Origin: a virus | Lineage: Duplodnaviria; Caudoviricetes | Virus record (IMG/VR): IMGVR_UViG_3300033049_000023 | Span: 1 to 60,285 of that record | Length of the DNA: 60,285 nt | Reading direction: 5' to 3' (one strand) | Shown: piece after piece, positions 5,909-52,888 of the stretch | How the letters are laid out: each line of letters starts with the position of its first letter | How positions within the stretch are numbered: position 1 is the first letter of the stretch | Notes under the pieces: generated by a model | What the model saw: the letters and a program-made list of their open reading frames with translations, nothing else | What the model was told of the DNA's origin: nothing | Databases searched by the model: none | Translations under genes and position numbers: made by a program

Positions 5909-7137
5909 TGGCGAAACGATCAATCTAGGGCGAGCGACAAAACCTTGAAACCTCGGTTTACGAGGAGGCGAAGCGGCGGATTGGGTATTGCATGGATTCG
6001 TCCGATACCATCGTCGTCGGATTTTCCGGCGGCAAGGATTCGACGGCTCTTCTCAATGTGACTCTTGATGTTGCCGAGGAGCGGAACTACGGCCCGGTGA
6101 AGGCAATCTTTTTCGATGAAGAATGTATGCACCCGGAAACGATTGAATATGTTCAGCGGGTTCGGGAGGACCCGCGCGTGGACCTCACTTGGTCATGTAT
6201 CCCGATCAAGAGCCGCAACGCATCGTCCCGGCTCCATCCGTACTATCTGACCTTTGATCCAGACCCCGCCATCGTGCCGCTCTGGGCCCGTCAACCGCCC
6301 GAGGGGGCGTTCACCTCCGAAACCCACCCGACTGTCCCCCAACTCACCCCAATGGACCAGATGGGGCACCTGTTCCCCGTGAGCGAATGCGGCTCGGTGT
6401 GTCATATGCTCGGGCGCAGGTGTCAGGAATCGGTCACCCGGTGGCGGATGATCTCCAACCGGGGCGGCAAGGACGCGTTCATCAGTAAATCACATATGTC
6501 CCGGTGGAAGCACATTCGCGTTGCCGATCCGATTTACGATTGGCGGACTCAGGATGTTTGGGTTGCCCCGCACCTCTACGGGTGGGACTACAACCGGACC
6601 TATGACATTTACGCCCGGATGGGTGTGCCGCTTCATGCTCAACGGGTGGCCCCGGCGTATGCCGAGGAGTCGAAGTTGCTTTGGGCTTACGCGATTGGCT
6701 GGCCCGATCTCTGGGACAAAATCCAAATGCGGGTTCCCGGCGCGGCGTGCTTTGCCCGGTACAACAAAACCAAACTCTACCGGGGCGGGCTGGCGGGAAG
6801 TTGCGAGCCGTCCGAGGGTGAGTCGTGGCAAGATTATGTCCAACGGCTCCTCATGCTCTGGGGACCGGACACCCGGAAACAGGTGGCGGCAAACATCGTG
6901 CAACTCATCAACCGGCACGACCGGCGGTGTATGCAAGAGCAAGGGTTCGTCGATGGGATTCCAGAAATGGAACGGCACATTCTCTCGGGGGTGTCGTGGA
7001 AGATTCTTGCAAAGGTCGCGTTCCAAGGGATGCTCAAAGGGCGGACACTGAGCCAACTTATGCAGTACCGAGGGAAGATTGAAAAAGTAGAAATCACCAC
7101 CAACGAAAGTGAGGGCTCCGATGCCAACGGCGAGTAA
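5908..7137 (+). CDS. ibrA: IbrA/YbdN-like PAPS-reductase family PP-loop protein (in-frame TAG at 5926-5928; uninterrupted ORF from 5992)
   Basis: FSGGKDS PP-loop, FFDEE, GRRCQESVTR, PIYDWRTQDVW, YNRTYD, QRVAP, WPDLWDKI..RVPG. Confidence 0.85.
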
Positions 7138-15242: not shown

Positions 15243-15527
15243 ATGATCGATATGTTCAAGGTAGGTGACAAAGTTATTGAGCGTTTGGCCCCGGGTGAAT
15301 CGGCGACAATTCGCATCACCCGAATCCGTGGGAAGGTCCTCAACAAAGACACCGGGGCGTTCCTCGCGTTCATCACCGAACACGACACCCGATACACCGA
15401 GTGCGGGATGCGGTACCCGGCCAACGAACCGGGGTACCGCTCGATTCGTTCGATGAGCGGCGGCAAGTCCACCGCCACCGCACGGCGAAGGGCCAAGAAA
15501 CTGTTCCCCGAGGTGGCAAACCGATGA
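15243..15527 (+). CDS. hypothetical protein
   Basis: GAGG RBS. Confidence 0.55.
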   Translation: MIDMFKVGDKVIERLAPGESATIRITRIRGKVLNKDTGAFLAFITEHDTRYTECGMRYPANEPGYRSIRSMSGGKSTATARRRAKKLFPEVANR

Positions 15528-32456: not shown

Positions 32457-32524
32457 GCCCCGGCGGGGTATACTATGGAGGCATCCTTTACGCGTAAATA
32501 ACTAAACAAGACGGAGAACGGCTC

Positions 32525-33337
32525 ATGGCACTGAAACCAAAGATCACCACCGCAGAACTCGAAGCACTCCCCGAGGGAGTCCGAGAACATTACACACCCG
32601 TTACCGGGGCGGAAGATTCCCATATGCTCGATGTGACCCCGCAAGGTGGGTACGCGTTGGAGAATGTGGCACCGATCAAATCCGCACTGGAGGCCGAACG
32701 CCGCCGGGGCAACGCCGCAGAATCTCGCTTGAAGATTTACGAGATTCCGGGCGAGGATGGCGCAGACCCAAGCTATATTGACGCGGACGATGCCCGCAAC
32801 GCAATGGAGACCGTAGCAAAAGGGACCGGCGATGTGGATGAACGGATTCGCACCAGCGTAGAGGCCGAGCGCAGCCGACTTGGCAAGGCGCACAAGTTGG
32901 AGTTGGAGACCGCTACCGGGTCACTTACCGCAGCCGAAGCGGACATTTCACGCATGATGCTCCAGACCGCAGGGCTTTCCAACAACAACCGAGTGAAGGG
33001 TAATGCGAAGTTCGTCATTCCACTCTGGGAACAGGTGTCCCGAGTGGTCAAGGACGCGGACGGGAAACGCGTTATCGAAATCCTCGACGAGAACGGGGAA
33101 GTTCGACCGGGCTCGGGCGCGGGTGGGCGGCTCACCTCAGAAGAATACTTCGACGAACTCAGCAACGACCCAGACCTTGCCGTAGCGTTTGCCGGGGGTA
33201 GTTCCTCGGGGACCGGCGGCGGTCGGAACGACAAGCCGAGGGGCGGCGGAAGGACCGGGTTTGTCTCCGCCGGTGACTCCGATGGTCTGTCCGGCAGTCT
33301 TGAAGATATTGCCTCGGGCAAGGTCACCGTCAACTAA
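32525..33337 (+). CDS. capsid scaffolding protein
   Basis: LPEGVREHY..LDV, KSALEAER coiled-coil, Gly-rich C-terminus; upstream of capsid gene. Confidence 0.75.
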   Translation: MALKPKITTAELEALPEGVREHYTPVTGAEDSHMLDVTPQGGYALENVAPIKSALEAERRRGNAAESRLKIYEIPGEDGADPSYIDADDARNAMETVAKGTGDVDERIRTSVEAERSRLGKAHKLELETATGSLTAAEADISRMMLQTAGLSNNNRVKGNAKFVIPLWEQVSRVVKDADGKRVIEILDENGEVRPGSGAGGRLTSEEYFDELSNDPDLAVAFAGGSSSGTGGGRNDKPRGGGRTGFVSAGDSDGLSGSLEDIASGKVTVN

Positions 33338-33359
33338 ACGGCGGCGAAAGCACACACAA

Positions 33360-33403
33360 ACCGGCCTGTTCCCACCTTGTCCCCGGGAATAGGTCGGTTT
33401 TTT
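33360..33403 (+). terminator. Rho-independent terminator
   Basis: ACCGGCCTGTTCCC/GGGAATAGGTCGGT stem plus T-run. Confidence 0.7.
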
Positions 33404-33412
33404 GCTACCGAC

Positions 33413-33603
33413 TTGCTTTTAGGTCTGGGGCATGTTAGAGTTTTGTATCGATCACCAGCGGCGGGATGCCAATGGGCCGATTGATACCCCCCGGGTTGCG
33501 GGATGCTCCTCGGGTTGTTGGACGCTAGGCGGGATGCCGATGCGAAAGACTCCACTGTAAATCTAAGCCCGGTCAACCGACCATCACCACAAGGAGATTC
33601 GCT
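33413..33603 (+). promoter_or_regulatory. capsid-gene promoter and long leader with three GCGGGATGC hairpins
   Basis: TTGCTT-17-TAGAGT with TGn extension; GCGGGATGC at 33461, 33498, 33529; RBS ACAAGGAG. Confidence 0.65.
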
Positions 33604-34758
33604 ATGGCGAACGATCTCACAAATGTAATGCACAAGATTCTTGCGCGGGGTCTCATGTCGCTCCGCGAAACCGTCCTTCTCACCCAGTTGGTAAACACCG
33701 ATTACTCCAGCGAGGCAGCCAAGAAGGGTGATGTTATCAATGTCCCCGTTCCAACTTCCATCGGCGTGATTGATGTTGTCCCCGGTGTGACCGACCCGAC
33801 CCCCGTGGATAAGACCCCCGGCACCGTGGCTATCCCGCTTGACAACTGGAAGCAGAACGAACCGTTCCACCTCACCGACAAGCAACAGGCGGAAGTCAGC
33901 AAGAACGAACATTTCCTCCCTATGTATGTCACCGAGTCGCTTCGTGCGCTGGCCGGTTCCATCAACCAGACCGTGCTTGCCCAATACACGGGTGTGTATG
34001 GTTATGTGGGTACCGCAGGCACCACACCGTTCGGTTCCACCGTCGCCGATGCCGTCCAAGCCCGCAAGGTCCTCAACGCTCAGTTGTGCCCTCGCCGGGA
34101 CCGCCGGATGGTCTTGGACCACGAGGGCGAAGCGAACGCGCTTGCCCTCTCCGCATTCTCGGACTTCGAGAAAACCGGTGAGCAAAACGCGAAGATCCAC
34201 GGCGTGCTTGGAACCAAGTACGGCTTTGATTTCTTCGCCGATGACGACATCCCGACGCACACCGTCGGCACCGCATTCGCTAAGACCGTCACCCTCATCT
34301 CCAACTCCGCAGTTGGCGATGCAACCGTGACGCTCGGTGTTGATATCGGTACCGCCACCGTTGTTGAGGGTGACATCATCACCATCGCGGGCGACCTCCA
34401 GACTTATGTTGTGACCGCAGACGCGACCCTGAATACCTCAGGTGTTGCCGTTGCGATCTCGCCTACTCTGGCAATCGCGGTGAACGGTTCGGGCACTCCC
34501 GTTGCCGTCACCCTGAAGGATTCACATACCGTGAACCTTGCGTTCCACCGTGACGCGTTCGCCCTTGCACTCCGCCCGTTGGAAAACTCCTCGGTCGCCT
34601 CAGCAAGTGCGAACATCGCCGTTATGTCCGACCCATTGACCGGCCTTTCACTTCGCCTCGAAGTTCGCCGCCAGCACAAGCAGGATGCTTGGGAGTTCGA
34701 TGCCCTCTGGGGGACCAAACTCGTTCGCCCTGAACTTGCTTGCCGCGTCGTCGGTTGA
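33604..34758 (+). CDS. major capsid protein (P22 coat-like)
   Basis: LVNTDY..KKGDVINVPVP, NLAFHRDAFALA.RPL, FDALWG.K.VRPELA. Confidence 0.9.
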   Translation: MANDLTNVMHKILARGLMSLRETVLLTQLVNTDYSSEAAKKGDVINVPVPTSIGVIDVVPGVTDPTPVDKTPGTVAIPLDNWKQNEPFHLTDKQQAEVSKNEHFLPMYVTESLRALAGSINQTVLAQYTGVYGYVGTAGTTPFGSTVADAVQARKVLNAQLCPRRDRRMVLDHEGEANALALSAFSDFEKTGEQNAKIHGVLGTKYGFDFFADDDIPTHTVGTAFAKTVTLISNSAVGDATVTLGVDIGTATVVEGDIITIAGDLQTYVVTADATLNTSGVAVAISPTLAIAVNGSGTPVAVTLKDSHTVNLAFHRDAFALALRPLENSSVASASANIAVMSDPLTGLSLRLEVRRQHKQDAWEFDALWGTKLVRPELACRVVG

Positions 34759-34773
34759 TACAAAATCCTTTTG

Positions 34774-34805
34774 AGCCCGGCGGTCAAACGCCCGCCGGGT
34801 TTTTT
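34774..34805 (+). terminator. Rho-independent terminator
   Basis: GCCCGGCGG/CCGCCGGGT stem plus T-run. Confidence 0.8.
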
Positions 34806-34845
34806 CAGAGTCCATATTCACCTAACACCCTAAAGGGGAACGCTC

Positions 34846-39202: not shown

Positions 39203-41940
39203 GTCTCACCCTCGACATCATCGTAAATCCGACCCGGGCAATGGTTGGACTCAAGAAGTTCGATCGAGGTCTAGACTCATCGGGCCGCAGGGTCAAACGC
39301 TTTGCCTCTACCGCAGACCGTTCGATGACCTCACTGGGTTCGACGATGAAGCGGGTCGGTGCGATTGCTACGGCGGCTCTTGCCTTTGGTGGGATTGCGG
39401 CGGGCATCCGGGGTGTGGTTTCCACCATCGCGTCTTTCGAGTCCACTATGGCACTCACCGGGGCGGTCGCTGGCGTGGATCGTCTCAGCGACCAGTACAA
39501 GGCCCTCTCAGACCGCGCCCGCGAACTGGGAGCAACCACCCGTTTCTCGGCTACGCAGGCGGGAGAGGGGCTTCTGTTCCTCGCACGGGCGGGCTTCACG
39601 GCTGAGGAGGCGATGGGCGCAGTAGGCGGTGCGCTCAACCTCGCAGCGGCGGGGGCCATCTCCCTCGGAGACGCGGCGGACATTGCCTCCAATATCGGGT
39701 CCACCTTTGCCGATCAGTTCGGCGGCAAGGTCGAAGCAACGGCGGCATCAATCGATGTACTGGTGGCCGCATCGAACCGGGCCAATACGAATGTGGCTCA
39801 GTTGGCCGAAGCGTTGAAGTTTGCCGGTCCCACGGCATCGGCGTTTGGTATCAGCATGGAGGACGCGGCGGCGAGTCTGGCCCAGTTGGGCAACTTCGGT
39901 ATTCAGGCATCTATGGCGGGCACCAATCTCCGTGCGATCCTTGCGGCACTGGTTGGTGGGTCGGACAAGGCCGAGGCGGCACTGAAACGGCTCGGGCTCA
40001 CTCAGGCAGATTTGAGCCCTGAGACAAACACACTCGCAGAAATCTTCGCCAAGTTGGAGGGGGCTAGTCTCGGTGCGGCGGACGCGCTTGCGATCTTTGG
40101 CCGTCGTAATGCTGGCGCGGCTCTCATCCTTGCGAAATCCTCTGCGGAAACCGCATTGCTCGCCGAGGAGTTGAGAAACGCCGAGGGTGAAGCGCAGCGA
40201 ATCGCGGACGCGATGAACGACACACTTATCGGTGCGTTCCTTGCGATGAAGTCCGCTTTCCAAGAGGCGGCTTTGCAGATCGGCGAGCGTGGGTTTGGTG
40301 GGGCACTCCGCAAGACCGTTGACTTTATCACCGGTGTAGTCCGAGTCTTTATTGGTATGACCGAGGAGGGCAAAGAAGCATCGAAGGCCGTTCTTCGTGT
40401 AGCCGAGGCGTTGAAGGTCGCAGGTGTTGCAGCGGCCACGATGGTAACTATCAAACTCGCAGGGTTTTTCATCGCAGCAACGCGAGCCGTGATTGGCTTC
40501 ACCGTGGCGATGGCAGCGAATCCGTTTGGTCTTGCGGCTATCGCTGTGACCGCATTGGTCTCCGGTTTGTTTGCTCTCCGAAATAAAGTTATCAACCTCG
40601 GTGGTGAGCCGATGAAGATTCTGGACATTATGATTGCGACTTGGGAGCATATGGGAGAAGTCGTAAAGGTGGTGTTCCGAACCATCGGCGAGGTCGTCCC
40701 CGTGATTATGAACAAGGTCGGTGAGATTTTCAGCGGCGTATTCCGCATCATGGGTGAGGTCGCCTTTGGTTTCCTTGATGAACTGTTCCCCGGATTCAAG
40801 TCGGTGTTCGATGCCATTGGTACCAATGTAATCGGGGGATTCGCTAGAGCCACGATTGCGGTAATCAATGGGCTCATTGGCGTACTCGGTGCGGCGTTCC
40901 GGTCGGTCACCAACTTTGTGAATGCGTTCGGCACACTCGACTTTACCAATATCAAAACTCTCGGTATTTCACTGGCCCAATTCAGCGGTCAAATCGCGGT
41001 CGCGTTCAACGGTCTTGGCATCGACGCATCCACGGCATTTGCGGACGGCGTGCTAAAGGGTGCATCCGGCAAAGACCTCATCGAGTCCTTGCTTGGGCTC
41101 GAAGGCGACTTCAATACCGCGTTCGTCGAAACCCTCGGGAAGTTCGGCGCAACAATCACCGAGGAGGAGTTTGCATCGCTATTCCTCCCGAGCAATGTCA
41201 CCGCGTCGATTCTCACCCGCGCCCGCGAACTGTTCGAGGAACGAAACCGACTTATCGAGGAGGGTGAGGATAAAAACATCGAAACCATCCGGCAAAAAGA
41301 GGAGGAGTTGCGGATTGAGTTGGAGAAACTCAACAACCTCCCAGACCCCGCCGAGGGTGCCAACGCGGATTCCGGCTTTGGGTTCTCATCCTTCTCGGCT
41401 ACCGTGGTTTCCGGTCTCGGTGACATCATCAAGCAAACCACTTCGGCAGCGGAGGGGTTCAAGAATATGGGCCGGGCGATCCTCGACCTTGCTATCCAAA
41501 AACTTGTGCTGGATCAACTCGCCGAATCGATGGATAACTTTTTCGGTGGTGGCGGCTCGGCTGGCGGATCAACCGGCGGCATCGCTGGGGGTATCGGTGG
41601 AATCCTCGGCTCACTATTCTCAGCGAAAGGCAACGCGTTCGGTTCCGGCGGTAGTGTCTCGGCGTTCGCCAAGGGCGGCGTTCTCACTGACACCGCGATC
41701 TTCCCCATGCGGAACGGCGGAATCGGTGTAGCCGGTGAGGCGGGGGACGAACCAGTGATGGGCCTTGCCCGGGATAGCCAAGGCAATCTCGGCGTGCGGA
41801 GTATTGGCGGCGGTGGGACTACGATCAATATGGGCGGCATCGTCATTCAGGCAAACAACCCCGGCGAGTTCCATGCGGGTTTGCGTCAAACAGCATCGGA
41901 TGCCGTCGAAGTTATGCGGCGGGCAACGAGCGGAGGTTGA
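39199..41940 (+). CDS. tail tape measure protein
   Basis: ARELGATTRFSA.QA..G..FLARAG (TP901-like core); FAKGGV..AGEAG.E C-terminus. Confidence 0.92.
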   Translation: MSLTLDIIVNPTRAMVGLKKFDRGLDSSGRRVKRFASTADRSMTSLGSTMKRVGAIATAALAFGGIAAGIRGVVSTIASFESTMALTGAVAGVDRLSDQYKALSDRARELGATTRFSATQAGEGLLFLARAGFTAEEAMGAVGGALNLAAAGAISLGDAADIASNIGSTFADQFGGKVEATAASIDVLVAASNRANTNVAQLAEALKFAGPTASAFGISMEDAAASLAQLGNFGIQASMAGTNLRAILAALVGGSDKAEAALKRLGLTQADLSPETNTLAEIFAKLEGASLGAADALAIFGRRNAGAALILAKSSAETALLAEELRNAEGEAQRIADAMNDTLIGAFLAMKSAFQEAALQIGERGFGGALRKTVDFITGVVRVFIGMTEEGKEASKAVLRVAEALKVAGVAAATMVTIKLAGFFIAATRAVIGFTVAMAANPFGLAAIAVTALVSGLFALRNKVINLGGEPMKILDIMIATWEHMGEVVKVVFRTIGEVVPVIMNKVGEIFSGVFRIMGEVAFGFLDELFPGFKSVFDAIGTNVIGGFARATIAVINGLIGVLGAAFRSVTNFVNAFGTLDFTNIKTLGISLAQFSGQIAVAFNGLGIDASTAFADGVLKGASGKDLIESLLGLEGDFNTAFVETLGKFGATITEEEFASLFLPSNVTASILTRARELFEERNRLIEEGEDKNIETIRQKEEELRIELEKLNNLPDPAEGANADSGFGFSSFSATVVSGLGDIIKQTTSAAEGFKNMGRAILDLAIQKLVLDQLAESMDNFFGGGGSAGGSTGGIAGGIGGILGSLFSAKGNAFGSGGSVSAFAKGGVLTDTAIFPMRNGGIGVAGEAGDEPVMGLARDSQGNLGVRSIGGGGTTINMGGIVIQANNPGEFHAGLRQTASDAVEVMRRATSGG

Positions 41941-51211: not shown

Positions 51212-51244
51212 TCCAGCCGGGGGAAACCTCCCGGCTGGGTTTTT
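51212..51244 (+). terminator. terminator-like hairpin upstream of csrA
   Basis: CCAGCCGGG/CCCGGCTGG stem plus T-run. Confidence 0.7.
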
Positions 51245-51269
51245 CATTGCTCAAACATAGGAGGCATGG

Positions 51270-51470
51270 ATGCTTGTACTCACTCGAAGAATCGGCGAGC
51301 GTATTTTGATCAAAGGGCCGGATGGATCAAGTGGTTCTATTGAACTCACTCAGATCAAAGGCGACCGCGTAAAACTGGCGTTCAACTTTCCTCCCGAGGT
51401 CCACATTTATCGTGAGGAGATTTTGTTTGGTAAACTCCCCATTCTTGTTGGACCCGAGGAGGAATCGTGA
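51270..51470 (+). CDS. csrA: carbon storage regulator CsrA/RsmA homolog
   Basis: MLVLTRRIGERI.I...I....IKGDRVKLAF..P.EV.IYREEI. Confidence 0.9.
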   Translation: MLVLTRRIGERILIKGPDGSSGSIELTQIKGDRVKLAFNFPPEVHIYREEILFGKLPILVGPEEES

Positions 51471-52888
51471 TGCCGGAAACAATCTCACTCTACCCGCACC
51501 AGATCAAGGCCGTTGAGATTGCACGCACGCGGCCACGGTTCGGATTCTTTTGGGACCCGGGCACCTGTAAGACCATCGGCATCCTTGCGATCCAAGCGGA
51601 CCGCCCACGGCGCACGCTAGTCCTCGCCCAGAAATCTATTCTCAACTCGGCGTGGAAAGAGGATGGCGAAGCGATGGGCGCGGATGTGGTCATTGGTCAC
51701 CATAAGAATCGAGCGAAGCGGCTCGCACTCATTCAGACCCCGGGTGAGATTATCATCGCCACCAACTACGAAACTTTCCGAAACCACGAACTCGATTTCA
51801 TGGAGGGCGGGTTCACTCGGTTGGTGGTGGATGAGTCCAGTAAATGTAAAAACCGGGATGCCAAGACCACCCGAGCAATCACCCGGTTTGCCGACTCGAT
51901 GCAAGAGGTCTATATCCTATCGGGCGGTCCCGCGCCGAACTGTCATACCGAATACTGGTCACAACTCCGCATCCTCTCGCCCACGGCGGCGGGCCGGGAC
52001 TTCTACCGGTGGGCGTATCACTGGTTGATCCCAGAAATCCAAATGGTGTGGAAGGGCGGGCGACAGAAACGCACAATCTCGGGCTGGACATTGAAGGCCG
52101 GGAAAGAACAGGCGTTCGCTAAATCTATTGCCGATTGGGCGTGGTCACTGACCGAAGCGGAATGCCTCGAACTCCCGCCGATGATTAACAAGCGGTACGA
52201 TTTGGAACTCTCACCATCGGAACGCAAGGCATACAAATCCATTGAGGAGGATTTCTGTTTGGAGGTCAACGCCTCGGCTATCGACATCGACGGCACCGAG
52301 ATTGATTCGGTTCCTATGGAGGTCTCGGTGGCAGCGGGCGCAACCTTTATCAAACTCCGACAGGTCACCGGCGGAACGGTCCGCATTGCGGGTCAGGTGG
52401 TGGGCGTAGGAAATACGAAACTCAACGCCGCCAAAGAAATCCTCGAAGAAATCGGTAAGGAACCGTTGCTTATCTGGGCCGAGTTTACGGCTGAAATCGA
52501 TTCGCTCACCGGCGTACTCAGGGGCGAGGGGCACCGCGTTGGTATTTTGGACGGGCGAACAAACGACGCGATGGCAGTTATCCGGGCATTTCTTTCCGGC
52601 GAAATCAATGTCATCATTGCCCACCCTAAATCGGCGGGGCACGGGACCGATGGGCTCCAGCGGGTTTGCCGCCATTCCCTGTTCTTTTCCTACTCATTTT
52701 CAGCGGATGAGCATTGGCAGGCAAAAAAGCGGCTCCATCGGAATCGCCAAACCCGGTCCCCGGTTTACCACTATCTGTGCATGATGAACACCGTTGATGA
52801 GACGGCACTTAAAGTTCTCAATGGAAAGGTAAAGCAGCAGTACGCTATGCTTGCAGAGATTCGACGGATTCACGGTAAACTGGCCTAG
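51470..52888 (+). CDS. SNF2-family helicase
   Basis: LYPHQ, GTCKT, VVDESS, KLRQVTGG, HPKSAGHG, QA..R.HR. Confidence 0.88.
   Translation: MPETISLYPHQIKAVEIARTRPRFGFFWDPGTCKTIGILAIQADRPRRTLVLAQKSILNSAWKEDGEAMGADVVIGHHKNRAKRLALIQTPGEIIIATNYETFRNHELDFMEGGFTRLVVDESSKCKNRDAKTTRAITRFADSMQEVYILSGGPAPNCHTEYWSQLRILSPTAAGRDFYRWAYHWLIPEIQMVWKGGRQKRTISGWTLKAGKEQAFAKSIADWAWSLTEAECLELPPMINKRYDLELSPSERKAYKSIEEDFCLEVNASAIDIDGTEIDSVPMEVSVAAGATFIKLRQVTGGTVRIAGQVVGVGNTKLNAAKEILEEIGKEPLLIWAEFTAEIDSLTGVLRGEGHRVGILDGRTNDAMAVIRAFLSGEINVIIAHPKSAGHGTDGLQRVCRHSLFFSYSFSADEHWQAKKRLHRNRQTRSPVYHYLCMMNTVDETALKVLNGKVKQQYAMLAEIRRIHGKLA

Follow-up and report, generated by a model that had tools for sequence, protein, structure and literature searches.

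A G-N-G-A-U pentaloop hairpin in phage head-gene leaders appears to be a widespread RNA element that is independent of CsrA

We describe a short hairpin motif that is found singly or in two to four neighbouring copies 5′ of the scaffold and major-capsid genes, within their leaders, in many phages, including phages of alpha-, beta- and gammaproteobacteria. As read from sequence, the motif is a predicted hairpin of 3–8 bp with a free but complementary stem and the pentaloop G-N-G-A-U, usually seated on a C-G pair. We give a probability of about 0.85 to its being a true, functional RNA element that works independently of CsrA. The window, by which we mean the whole 60,285-nt stretch of DNA analysed, is a virus record that is complete and bears direct terminal repeats; its long open reading frames lie nearly all on the + strand, and it carries three copies of the motif in front of its major capsid gene. 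A literature search for a pentaloop or hairpin motif in phage capsid leaders found no relevant description, and this widespread head-gene leader motif appears to be hitherto undescribed.

Tailed phages need scaffold and major capsid in greater amounts than any other protein, and at a fixed ratio; to our knowledge, how these amounts are set after transcription has been worked out in only a handful of phages. A short, recognisable RNA motif in the head-gene leaders gives a concrete handle on head-protein dosage, and the present one spans cultured Pseudomonas, Bordetella, Janthinobacterium, Variovorax and Bradyrhizobium phages together with many uncultured ones.

Results

The capsid leader of the window holds three GGGAU hairpins

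The features of the capsid locus are as follows.

32525–33337, + strand: head scaffolding protein gene, upstream neighbour of the capsid gene (phrog_206, E 5.4e-16)
33358–33403, + strand: intrinsic terminator 3′ of the scaffold gene, 16-bp stem followed by U6
33413–33441, + strand: possible promoter, seen by eye only (TTGCTT at 33413–33418, 17 nt, TGnTAGAGT at 33433–33441)
33445–33487, + strand: hairpin 1, outer 9-bp stem, CCA/UGG, then GGC-GGGAU-GCC (33460–33470)
33490–33514, + strand: hairpin 2, CCCGGG / 2x2 internal loop / GC-GGGAU-GC / CUCGGG, with GCGGGATGC at 33498
33523–33543, + strand: hairpin 3, GCU..GGC-GGGAU-GCC...GCG, core 33528–33538, short outer stem
33591–33596, + strand: Shine-Dalgarno AAGGAG of the capsid gene, from sequence, 7 nt 5′ of the ATG at 33604
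33604–34758, + strand: major capsid protein gene, P22-coat-like (PF11651, E 5.5e-16; phrog_283, E 1e-77)
34775–34806, + strand: intrinsic terminator 3′ of the capsid gene, 9-bp GC stem and U6

The PF11651 match spans capsid residues 1–384, a full-length match that places the protein in the P22-coat-like family, and a head-tail adaptor gene comes after the capsid gene. The gap between scaffold and capsid genes is 266 nt long and opens with the scaffold-gene terminator. An initial annotation of this DNA had assigned the capsid gene a terminator and a promoter of its own. Both flanking terminators are strong, the upstream one at −30.3 kcal/mol with a z of −5.3 and the downstream one with a z of −3.6, and 0 of 200 shuffles were as stable in either case. 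The promoter stands on visual inspection, and a consensus promoter scan of the window returned 0 promoter-like sites and did not recover the candidate at 33413–33441. Directly 3′ of a possible TATACT −10 box in the scaffold-gene leader, positions 32480–32486 read GGCATCC. This is reverse-complementary to GGATGCC, which the capsid leader contains in its loops and 3′ arms; the two leaders might pair, or the match might be chance, and kissing between loops is a further possibility.

The three copies of GCGGGATGC that the initial annotation had reported in the capsid leader are all present (33461–33469, 33498–33506 and 33529–33537, all on the + strand and exact, within 77 nt), lying 52–140 nt 5′ of the capsid ribosome-binding site. 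Its further description of two GGC-GGGAT-GCC mini-hairpins and one copy in a longer stem also holds, as both the minimum-energy fold of the leader and the local folds put GGGAU in a hairpin loop in 3/3 copies. Four exact occurrences of GCGGGATGC were found in the 60,285-nt window against 1.14 expected, a number reached by 1 of 100 shuffles; the fourth, at 15403, is coding, within the frame ...TECGMRYP..., and was set aside. When one mismatch was allowed there was no genome-wide excess (29 found, 26 expected), and the signal therefore lies in three exact copies clustered within 77 nt.

The hairpins of the window are themselves weak, having inner stems of 3, 2 and 3 bp. The local fold of hairpin 1 has −18.5 kcal/mol and a z of −2.1, and in hairpin 2 a 2x2 internal loop separates the 6-bp outer stem from the 2-bp inner stem, an architecture matched by the second hairpins of two relatives, L008 and L160. 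Taken as a whole, the leader gains no stability over its shuffles (z +0.89), 162 of the 200 folding as well, and because this folding energy is unremarkable the case rests on the repetition of the hairpin and on comparison across phages. The Rfam 15 covariance models gave nothing at gathering score in the window and nothing except one tRNA in nine related loci; with E values up to 10 admitted, the sole match in 33300–33660 was a miRNA falling by chance on the terminator. No DNA similarity to the leader was found among GenBank phages. Upstream open reading frames beginning with the AUG that the loop makes with its closing pair were rejected, as they come without a Shine-Dalgarno and the copies closed by G-C have no AUG.

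Relatives picked by their capsid protein carry the hairpins with other stems

Thirty-one distinct loci, the window included, were picked by capsid homology alone from viral, metagenome and genome collections. The capsid homologues are at most 53% identical to the capsid of the window, so that the leader as a whole cannot be aligned. GGGAU hairpins were found in the capsid leaders of 5 of the 31 loci, namely the window and the following four, and their stems differ.

L005: GGC-GGGAU-GCC and CAGUC-GGGAU-GACUG
L008: CGGC-GGGAU-GCCG and a composite hairpin built like hairpin 2 of the window
L021: CGGGU-GGGAU-GCCCG and an 8-bp hairpin
L160: a 7-bp hairpin and a composite one

Words reading GGGAT formed hairpins in 8 of 13 cases within the 250-nt capsid leaders versus 9 of 192 elsewhere (Fisher 3.8e-7). 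The other 26 of the 31 loci are without the motif, and since most relatives do without it, the motif is dispensable or replaceable. The capsid leaders of L001, L007, L013, L017, L010 and L014 contain no GNGAU hairpins and have other G-loop hairpins, for example GUCCCGGGGGGAC, GCUCCGGGGGAGC and GGUUUCGGGGAAACC; these may represent another kind of leader element in the corresponding position. In two prophage copies on one contig of an Acidobacteriota MAG (L145 and L146), the capsid leader, ~350 nt 5′ of the capsid start at 6001, is built from three ~115-nt units in tandem, all of which end in GCCCCGGTGGGGAC.

Hairpin arrays precede head genes of uncultured viruses

Viral contigs were scanned for two copies of GCGGGATGC 8–38 nt apart, and at least 119 stretches matched; this pattern fixes GC..GC, so that most metagenomic examples are pre-selected for those pairs. 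Most of the matches listed are coding coincidences and were set aside on inspection, being tandem repeats of Ala/Arg/Asp/Trp, Gly-Gly-Met-Pro repeats or the LRDAG box of the HK97 protease. Long protein repeats of the Ala-Ala-Arg-Asp-Ala-Ala-Trp-Asp type, the DNA of which mimics the motif, were seen in L025, L037, L043, L088, L091, L095 and others. The matches listed also include a non-coding class made of arrays of 2–4 hairpins, with stems of up to 10 bp, that lie directly 5′ of genes and are without exception sense-oriented with respect to the gene that follows.

Before scaffold genes, among the matches listed: L027, L032, L041, L042, L049, L052, L071, L075, L106, L120
Before capsid genes, among the matches listed: L053, L065, L099, L116
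Before a small-terminase gene, among the matches listed: L076 (phrog_51), one case

L128 and L138 are identical to L027 over the array region. The scaffold families 3′ of the arrays are phrog_206 (6 of the 10 queried), 2303, 1793 and 4708, with two left without assignment, and the major-head families 3′ of the motif are phrog_283, 247, 212 and 10.

Hairpin pairs 0–5 nt apart are common in these leaders. In L032, L075, L106 and L052 the start codon lies within the last hairpin (GGG-AUG-CC), with the Shine-Dalgarno just 5′ of the stem, and in L021, L041, L071 and the cultured phages BDU-MI-1, PaMx11, YuA and CN2 a hairpin adjoins or overlaps the Shine-Dalgarno. Because some copies hold the start codon and others adjoin or overlap the Shine-Dalgarno, the motif looks like a translational operator. 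The hairpins of capsid leaders lie 40–140 nt from the ribosome-binding site. On the reverse strand of L041, at ~3358 in the oriented sequence, the intrinsic terminator just 5′ of the two GGGAU hairpins has itself a GUGAU loop, seated on an inner stem of GGC/GCC.

Cultured phages carry the motif with other loops

The cultured set was made of GenBank phages with homologues of the L071 scaffold protein; ten were inspected, and eight of the ten have the motif in the scaffold leader, the capsid leader or both. No motif was found in eiAU, QDWS359, MW202657 or P22, the last of which has a gap of only 13 nt upstream of its gene 8.

Bradyrhizobium phage BDU-MI-1, scaffold leader: GCC-GGGAU-GGC; GGGGC-GGGAU-GCCCC; UCC-GGGAU-GGA one base 5′ of the start codon
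YuA and PAE1, scaffold leader: UGGCGG-GUGAU-CCGCCG
YuA and PAE1, capsid leader: GGA-GUGAU-UCC; CCGG-GUGAU-CCGG
Bordetella phage CN2: like YuA, with a GGUGG/CCACC stem
PaMx11: GCCCGUG-GAGAU-CACGGGU; GUGG-GUGAU-CCAC
Ab18: CCCAUG-GAGAU-CAUGGG; GUGG-GUGAU-CCAC
Janthinobacterium and Variovorax phages: GGGC-GCGAU-GCCC

When GNGAU hairpins of at least 4 bp were counted on both strands of five complete cultured genomes, the scaffold and capsid leaders, 1,083 nt in total, held 8 of 50 (binomial 6e-14), which makes the motif specific to head-gene leaders; the leader windows of this count, like those of the hairpin catalogue below, were set after the hairpins had been seen, though they follow annotated gene ends. 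In YuA (L179), the scaffold-leader GUGAU hairpin lies inside a fragment annotated as a sigma54-type promoter at 2323–2501, and the GG-N10-GC of that fragment is the hairpin stem.

For YuA, an ONT-cappable-seq study (Putzeys et al. 2024, PMC10914365) describes a short RNA at 39396–39519 (+) that has its own transcription start and constitutes the 5′UTR of the major head gene; it is abundant, was proposed as a non-coding RNA candidate and is conserved in M6 and LKO4. Both GUGAU hairpins of the YuA capsid leader fall inside this mapped RNA. Since the motif is always on the sense strand and the YuA leader is a mapped short RNA, the motif acts as RNA.

Stems covary and loop variants are interchangeable

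The catalogue of leader windows contains 86 GNGAU words, 62 of which have a stem of at least 3 bp, and among these 62 hairpins the loops other than GGGAU are GUGAU (9), GAGAU (5) and GCGAU (2); N can thus be G, A, U or C. In an ungapped alignment of 61 hairpins the loop bases G1, G3, A4 and U5 never change, in contrast to the stems. The inner three pairs are imposed by the way in which the hairpins were selected, and the unbiased evidence comes from pairs 4 and beyond and from the loci selected by protein. The fourth pair is formed in 48 of the 61 hairpins, by five types of pair. Over a stem of seven pairs, 77.5% of the cells pair, versus 49% in shuffles and 29–46% when the partners are slid, and the covariation score is 0.62, versus 0.15 in shuffles, none of 500 reaching it, and 0.11–0.18 with a slid partner. 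The stems covary.

Loop types are mixed within single phages and even within single arrays: L021 has two GAGAU loops before the scaffold gene and two GGGAU loops before the capsid gene, L099 mixes GGGAU with GAGAU, L041 has one GUGAU and two GGGAU, and both PaMx11 and Ab18 combine GAGAU with GUGAU. The variants are interchangeable, and it follows from this mixing that the conserved unit is G-N-G-A-U and that GGA is not the conserved element. GUGAUC is complementary to the 3′ tail of 16S rRNA; pairing of the loops with that tail was rejected as a general rule, because GGGAU, GAGAU and GCGAU are not complementary to it.

The phage csrA gene is not tied to the hairpins

51270–51470, + strand: csrA homologue (PF02599, E 3.4e-13; phrog_9500)

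The clear csrA gene named by the initial annotation was confirmed. It scores 49.8 bits with PF02599 against a curated cut-off of 27, which places the product in the CsrA family, and in alignment with E. coli CsrA 1y00 (and 7yr6) the product keeps both MLxLTRRxGE (here MLvLTRRiGE) and the REEI box. The GGA words noted near its start are there as well, ATAGGAGG and CATGGATG lying 5′ of or overlapping the start codon. The Atlas clusters nearest to the phage protein are viral CsrA families, which likewise show phage csrA to be common, as does published work (PMC8450108). A terminator-like hairpin lies 5′ of csrA at 51213–51245 (z −3.4), and at 51467–51472 the stop codon of csrA and the GTG/ATG start of an SNF2 helicase gene overlap; for these two reasons csrA is probably expressed with the replication genes and not with the late genes.

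From csrA and the loops the initial annotation had drawn a post-transcriptional circuit, in which phage or host CsrA binds the three loop GGAs together with the GGA of the Shine-Dalgarno and times or limits capsid translation, or in which the leader titrates CsrA. What survives from this proposal is a real, repeated hairpin element whose most likely action is post-transcriptional, on the capsid mRNA; CsrA as its partner is not supported, and we regard the circuit as quite unlikely. CsrA/RsmA sites of the CsrB, RsmZ and glgC-leader type do resemble the motif in being repeated short hairpins with a G-rich loop and with one site at the ribosome-binding site. CsrB repeats read CAGGAUG, the SELEX consensus of CsrA is known, and a CsrA dimer binds two sites; the C-GGGAU-G loops of the window are one base off CAGGAUG and within that consensus, the loop spacings of 37 and 31 nt, with 60 nt to AAGGAG, fit dual-site binding by a dimer, and the phage CsrA has kept its RNA-binding boxes. 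The GGA of the capsid Shine-Dalgarno is one that any strong Shine-Dalgarno holds. Knock-down of csrA in another phage led to smaller plaques (PMC11879866), which also speaks for a role of CsrA. What argues against the circuit is that the homologous motif keeps G-N-G-A-U instead of GGA. A GGA conserved across homologous hairpin loops, as is expected of CsrA sites, was not found: the loops of the window are GGGAU, and those of Pseudomonas, Bordetella, Janthinobacterium and Variovorax phages are GUGAU, GAGAU or GCGAU, so that GGA is not the selected feature. Pseudomonas hosts possess Rsm proteins, and their phages use GUGAU and GAGAU; we know of no way in which loops without GGA could be CsrA sites as these are currently understood.

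The company that the motif keeps points in the same direction. The initial annotation had looked to covariation of the motif with csrA in related phages; a PF02599 search, which recovers the csrA of the window itself, found the domain in 0 of 13 motif-bearing records (L005, L008, L021, BDU-MI-1, L065, L071, L041, L032, YuA, PaMx11, CN2, Donnerlittchen and V45iii), eight of which are complete or terminally repeated, the rest being fragments in which absence proves little. It had also held that the motif in relatives where phage and host both lack CsrA would tell against the circuit, and such relatives exist. BDU-MI-1, with three GGGAU hairpins and no PF02599, has Bradyrhizobium diazoefficiens as its host, and rhizobial genomes have no recognisable CsrA homologue according to a sentence in a review (PMC7143759), from which the absence of CsrA from Bradyrhizobium is taken. 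Seen from the side of csrA, hairpin arrays were absent from all of 18 viral loci that encode a protein related to the CsrA of the window, and in five other complete csrA-positive phage genomes the pattern matched at the level of a reversed-pattern control, with arrays in 0 of the 5; the single candidate inspected there was not a hairpin array. The motif occurs independently of CsrA, and since it is found also where no CsrA is available, CsrA is probably not the reader of the hairpins, while the presence of csrA and GGA-loop hairpins together in this genome looks like coincidence. A secondary interaction with CsrA in this one phage is conceivable because the loops of the window contain GGA, and we consider it improbable. 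As far as sequence comparison goes, csrA at 51270–51470 is not tied to the capsid-leader hairpins, and an array of GGA-loop hairpins beside a phage csrA is insufficient to infer a Csr circuit.

Discussion

We favour, at about even odds, the reading that the hairpins are a CsrA-independent RNA operator of head-gene mRNAs that is read by a putative trans-acting partner. The partner would recognise the G-N-G-A-U loop in the head-gene leader, and its binding would set the amount of head protein through translation initiation and possibly through mRNA survival too; in this phage, the three copies would act on a capsid transcript bounded by its own terminators. Such a partner could be a component that widely differing hosts (alpha-, beta- and gammaproteobacteria) have in common, or else one of the head-module proteins. 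Action at the level of translation and the existence of a protein partner are what we infer here. Against the operator speak the weak inner stems and unremarkable leader fold of the window, the absence of the motif from most relatives, the array of L143, which precedes no head gene, and the 40–140 nt in capsid leaders, too far for direct occlusion of the ribosome-binding site.

A protein of the head module is a candidate because the P22 scaffolding protein has been implicated in translational autoregulation, according to a preprint (bioRxiv 10.1101/2022.12.13.520362). Unassembled head protein, scaffold or coat, might thus feed back on scaffold and capsid translation via the GNGAU arrays, with CsrA perhaps layered on in this phage. 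We think this unlikely, but if it were true, feedback would tie the making of head protein to its assembly in many proteobacterial phages, and the GNGAU arrays would supply the RNA operator that is missing from the P22 scaffold autoregulation model. P22 differs from the phages described here in that the gap before its gene 8 leaves no room for a leader, and the motif accompanies several unrelated scaffold families.

The hairpins could also be a cis element that needs no protein, protecting the 5′ end, insulating the ribosome-binding site or modifying RNA polymerase for read-through past the capsid terminator in the manner of the HK022 put RNAs, which modify RNA polymerase. The occurrence of the motif with four scaffold and five capsid PHROG families in alpha-, beta- and gammaproteobacterial hosts is easiest to understand without a phage-specific factor, closely spaced hairpin pairs (0–5 nt) are common, terminators flank the head genes in both the window and YuA, and the YuA leader accumulates as a short RNA (PMC10914365). 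End protection or insulation would have no need of four loop bases that are invariant over 61 hairpins, and the copies that overlap the start codon or Shine-Dalgarno point to translation, so that we hold a cis element to be rather unlikely. It is highly improbable that the copies work as DNA, as promoters or operators that serve a sigma factor or phage regulator. This idea draws on NC_010116, which annotates a −24/−12 sigma54-type promoter of high activity over the YuA scaffold leader, where GG-N10-GC can be read in TGGCGGGTGATCCGCC. The GG-N10-GC is confined to the scaffold leaders of YuA and PAE1 and is lost in CN2 and PaMx11, and the GGC-GGGAT-GCC of the window gives GG-N6-GC, which departs from sigma54 spacing. 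Moreover, the stems covary for complementarity with free sequence, which recognition of duplex DNA does not require, some copies have the start codon inside, and the capsid-leader copies of YuA lie downstream of the mapped transcription start (PMC10914365).

An operator in the head-gene leader has partial likenesses among known phage elements. The boxB of lambdoid nut sites is a hairpin bound by N protein with a free stem of 4–7 bp and a purine-rich pentaloop; by its letters the G-N-G-A of our motif fits GNRA with one extra base, a resemblance of predicted fold, whereas unlike boxB it precedes late head genes, often in several copies, and occurs at the start codon. The start codon within the hairpin in L032, L075, L106 and L052 recalls the replicase operator of MS2 and Qbeta. 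The closest conceptual precedent is the SAS of Cluster K mycobacteriophages, GGGATAGGAGCCC, a phage-specific, repeated, start-associated element that lies 3–7 bp before start codons in one orientation and is conserved across gene families; it differs from our motif as a fixed 13-mer that includes the Shine-Dalgarno and serves non-structural genes of actinobacterial phages, with no covarying stems (PMC3203893). The YuA candidate RNA at 39396–39519 occupies the homologous place and contains two GUGAU hairpins of the motif, and its report, in the portion accessible, describes only the RNA and its conservation across Yuavirus, with no pentaloop motif, other phage groups or scaffold copies (PMC10914365). 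The motif could aid the annotation of head modules and could find use as a compact element for expression.

Copies were also seen away from head-gene leaders. The array of L143 precedes a ParB-methyltransferase gene, that is, no head gene. GCGAU hairpins outside the head leaders occur at Donnerlittchen 57374 and V45iii 52156, which are identical and belong to related genomes, and similar GCGAU hairpins lie at matching positions in YuA (5091) and CN2 (5071); these may be further functional copies or conserved coding sequence. On the reverse strand of L126 (2789–2833 in the oriented sequence), a direct repeat of 38 nt occurs twice, each unit with UUGC-GGGAU-GCGG, ~22 nt 3′ of the end of a tRNA-like sequence, and this place may be an attachment-site region.
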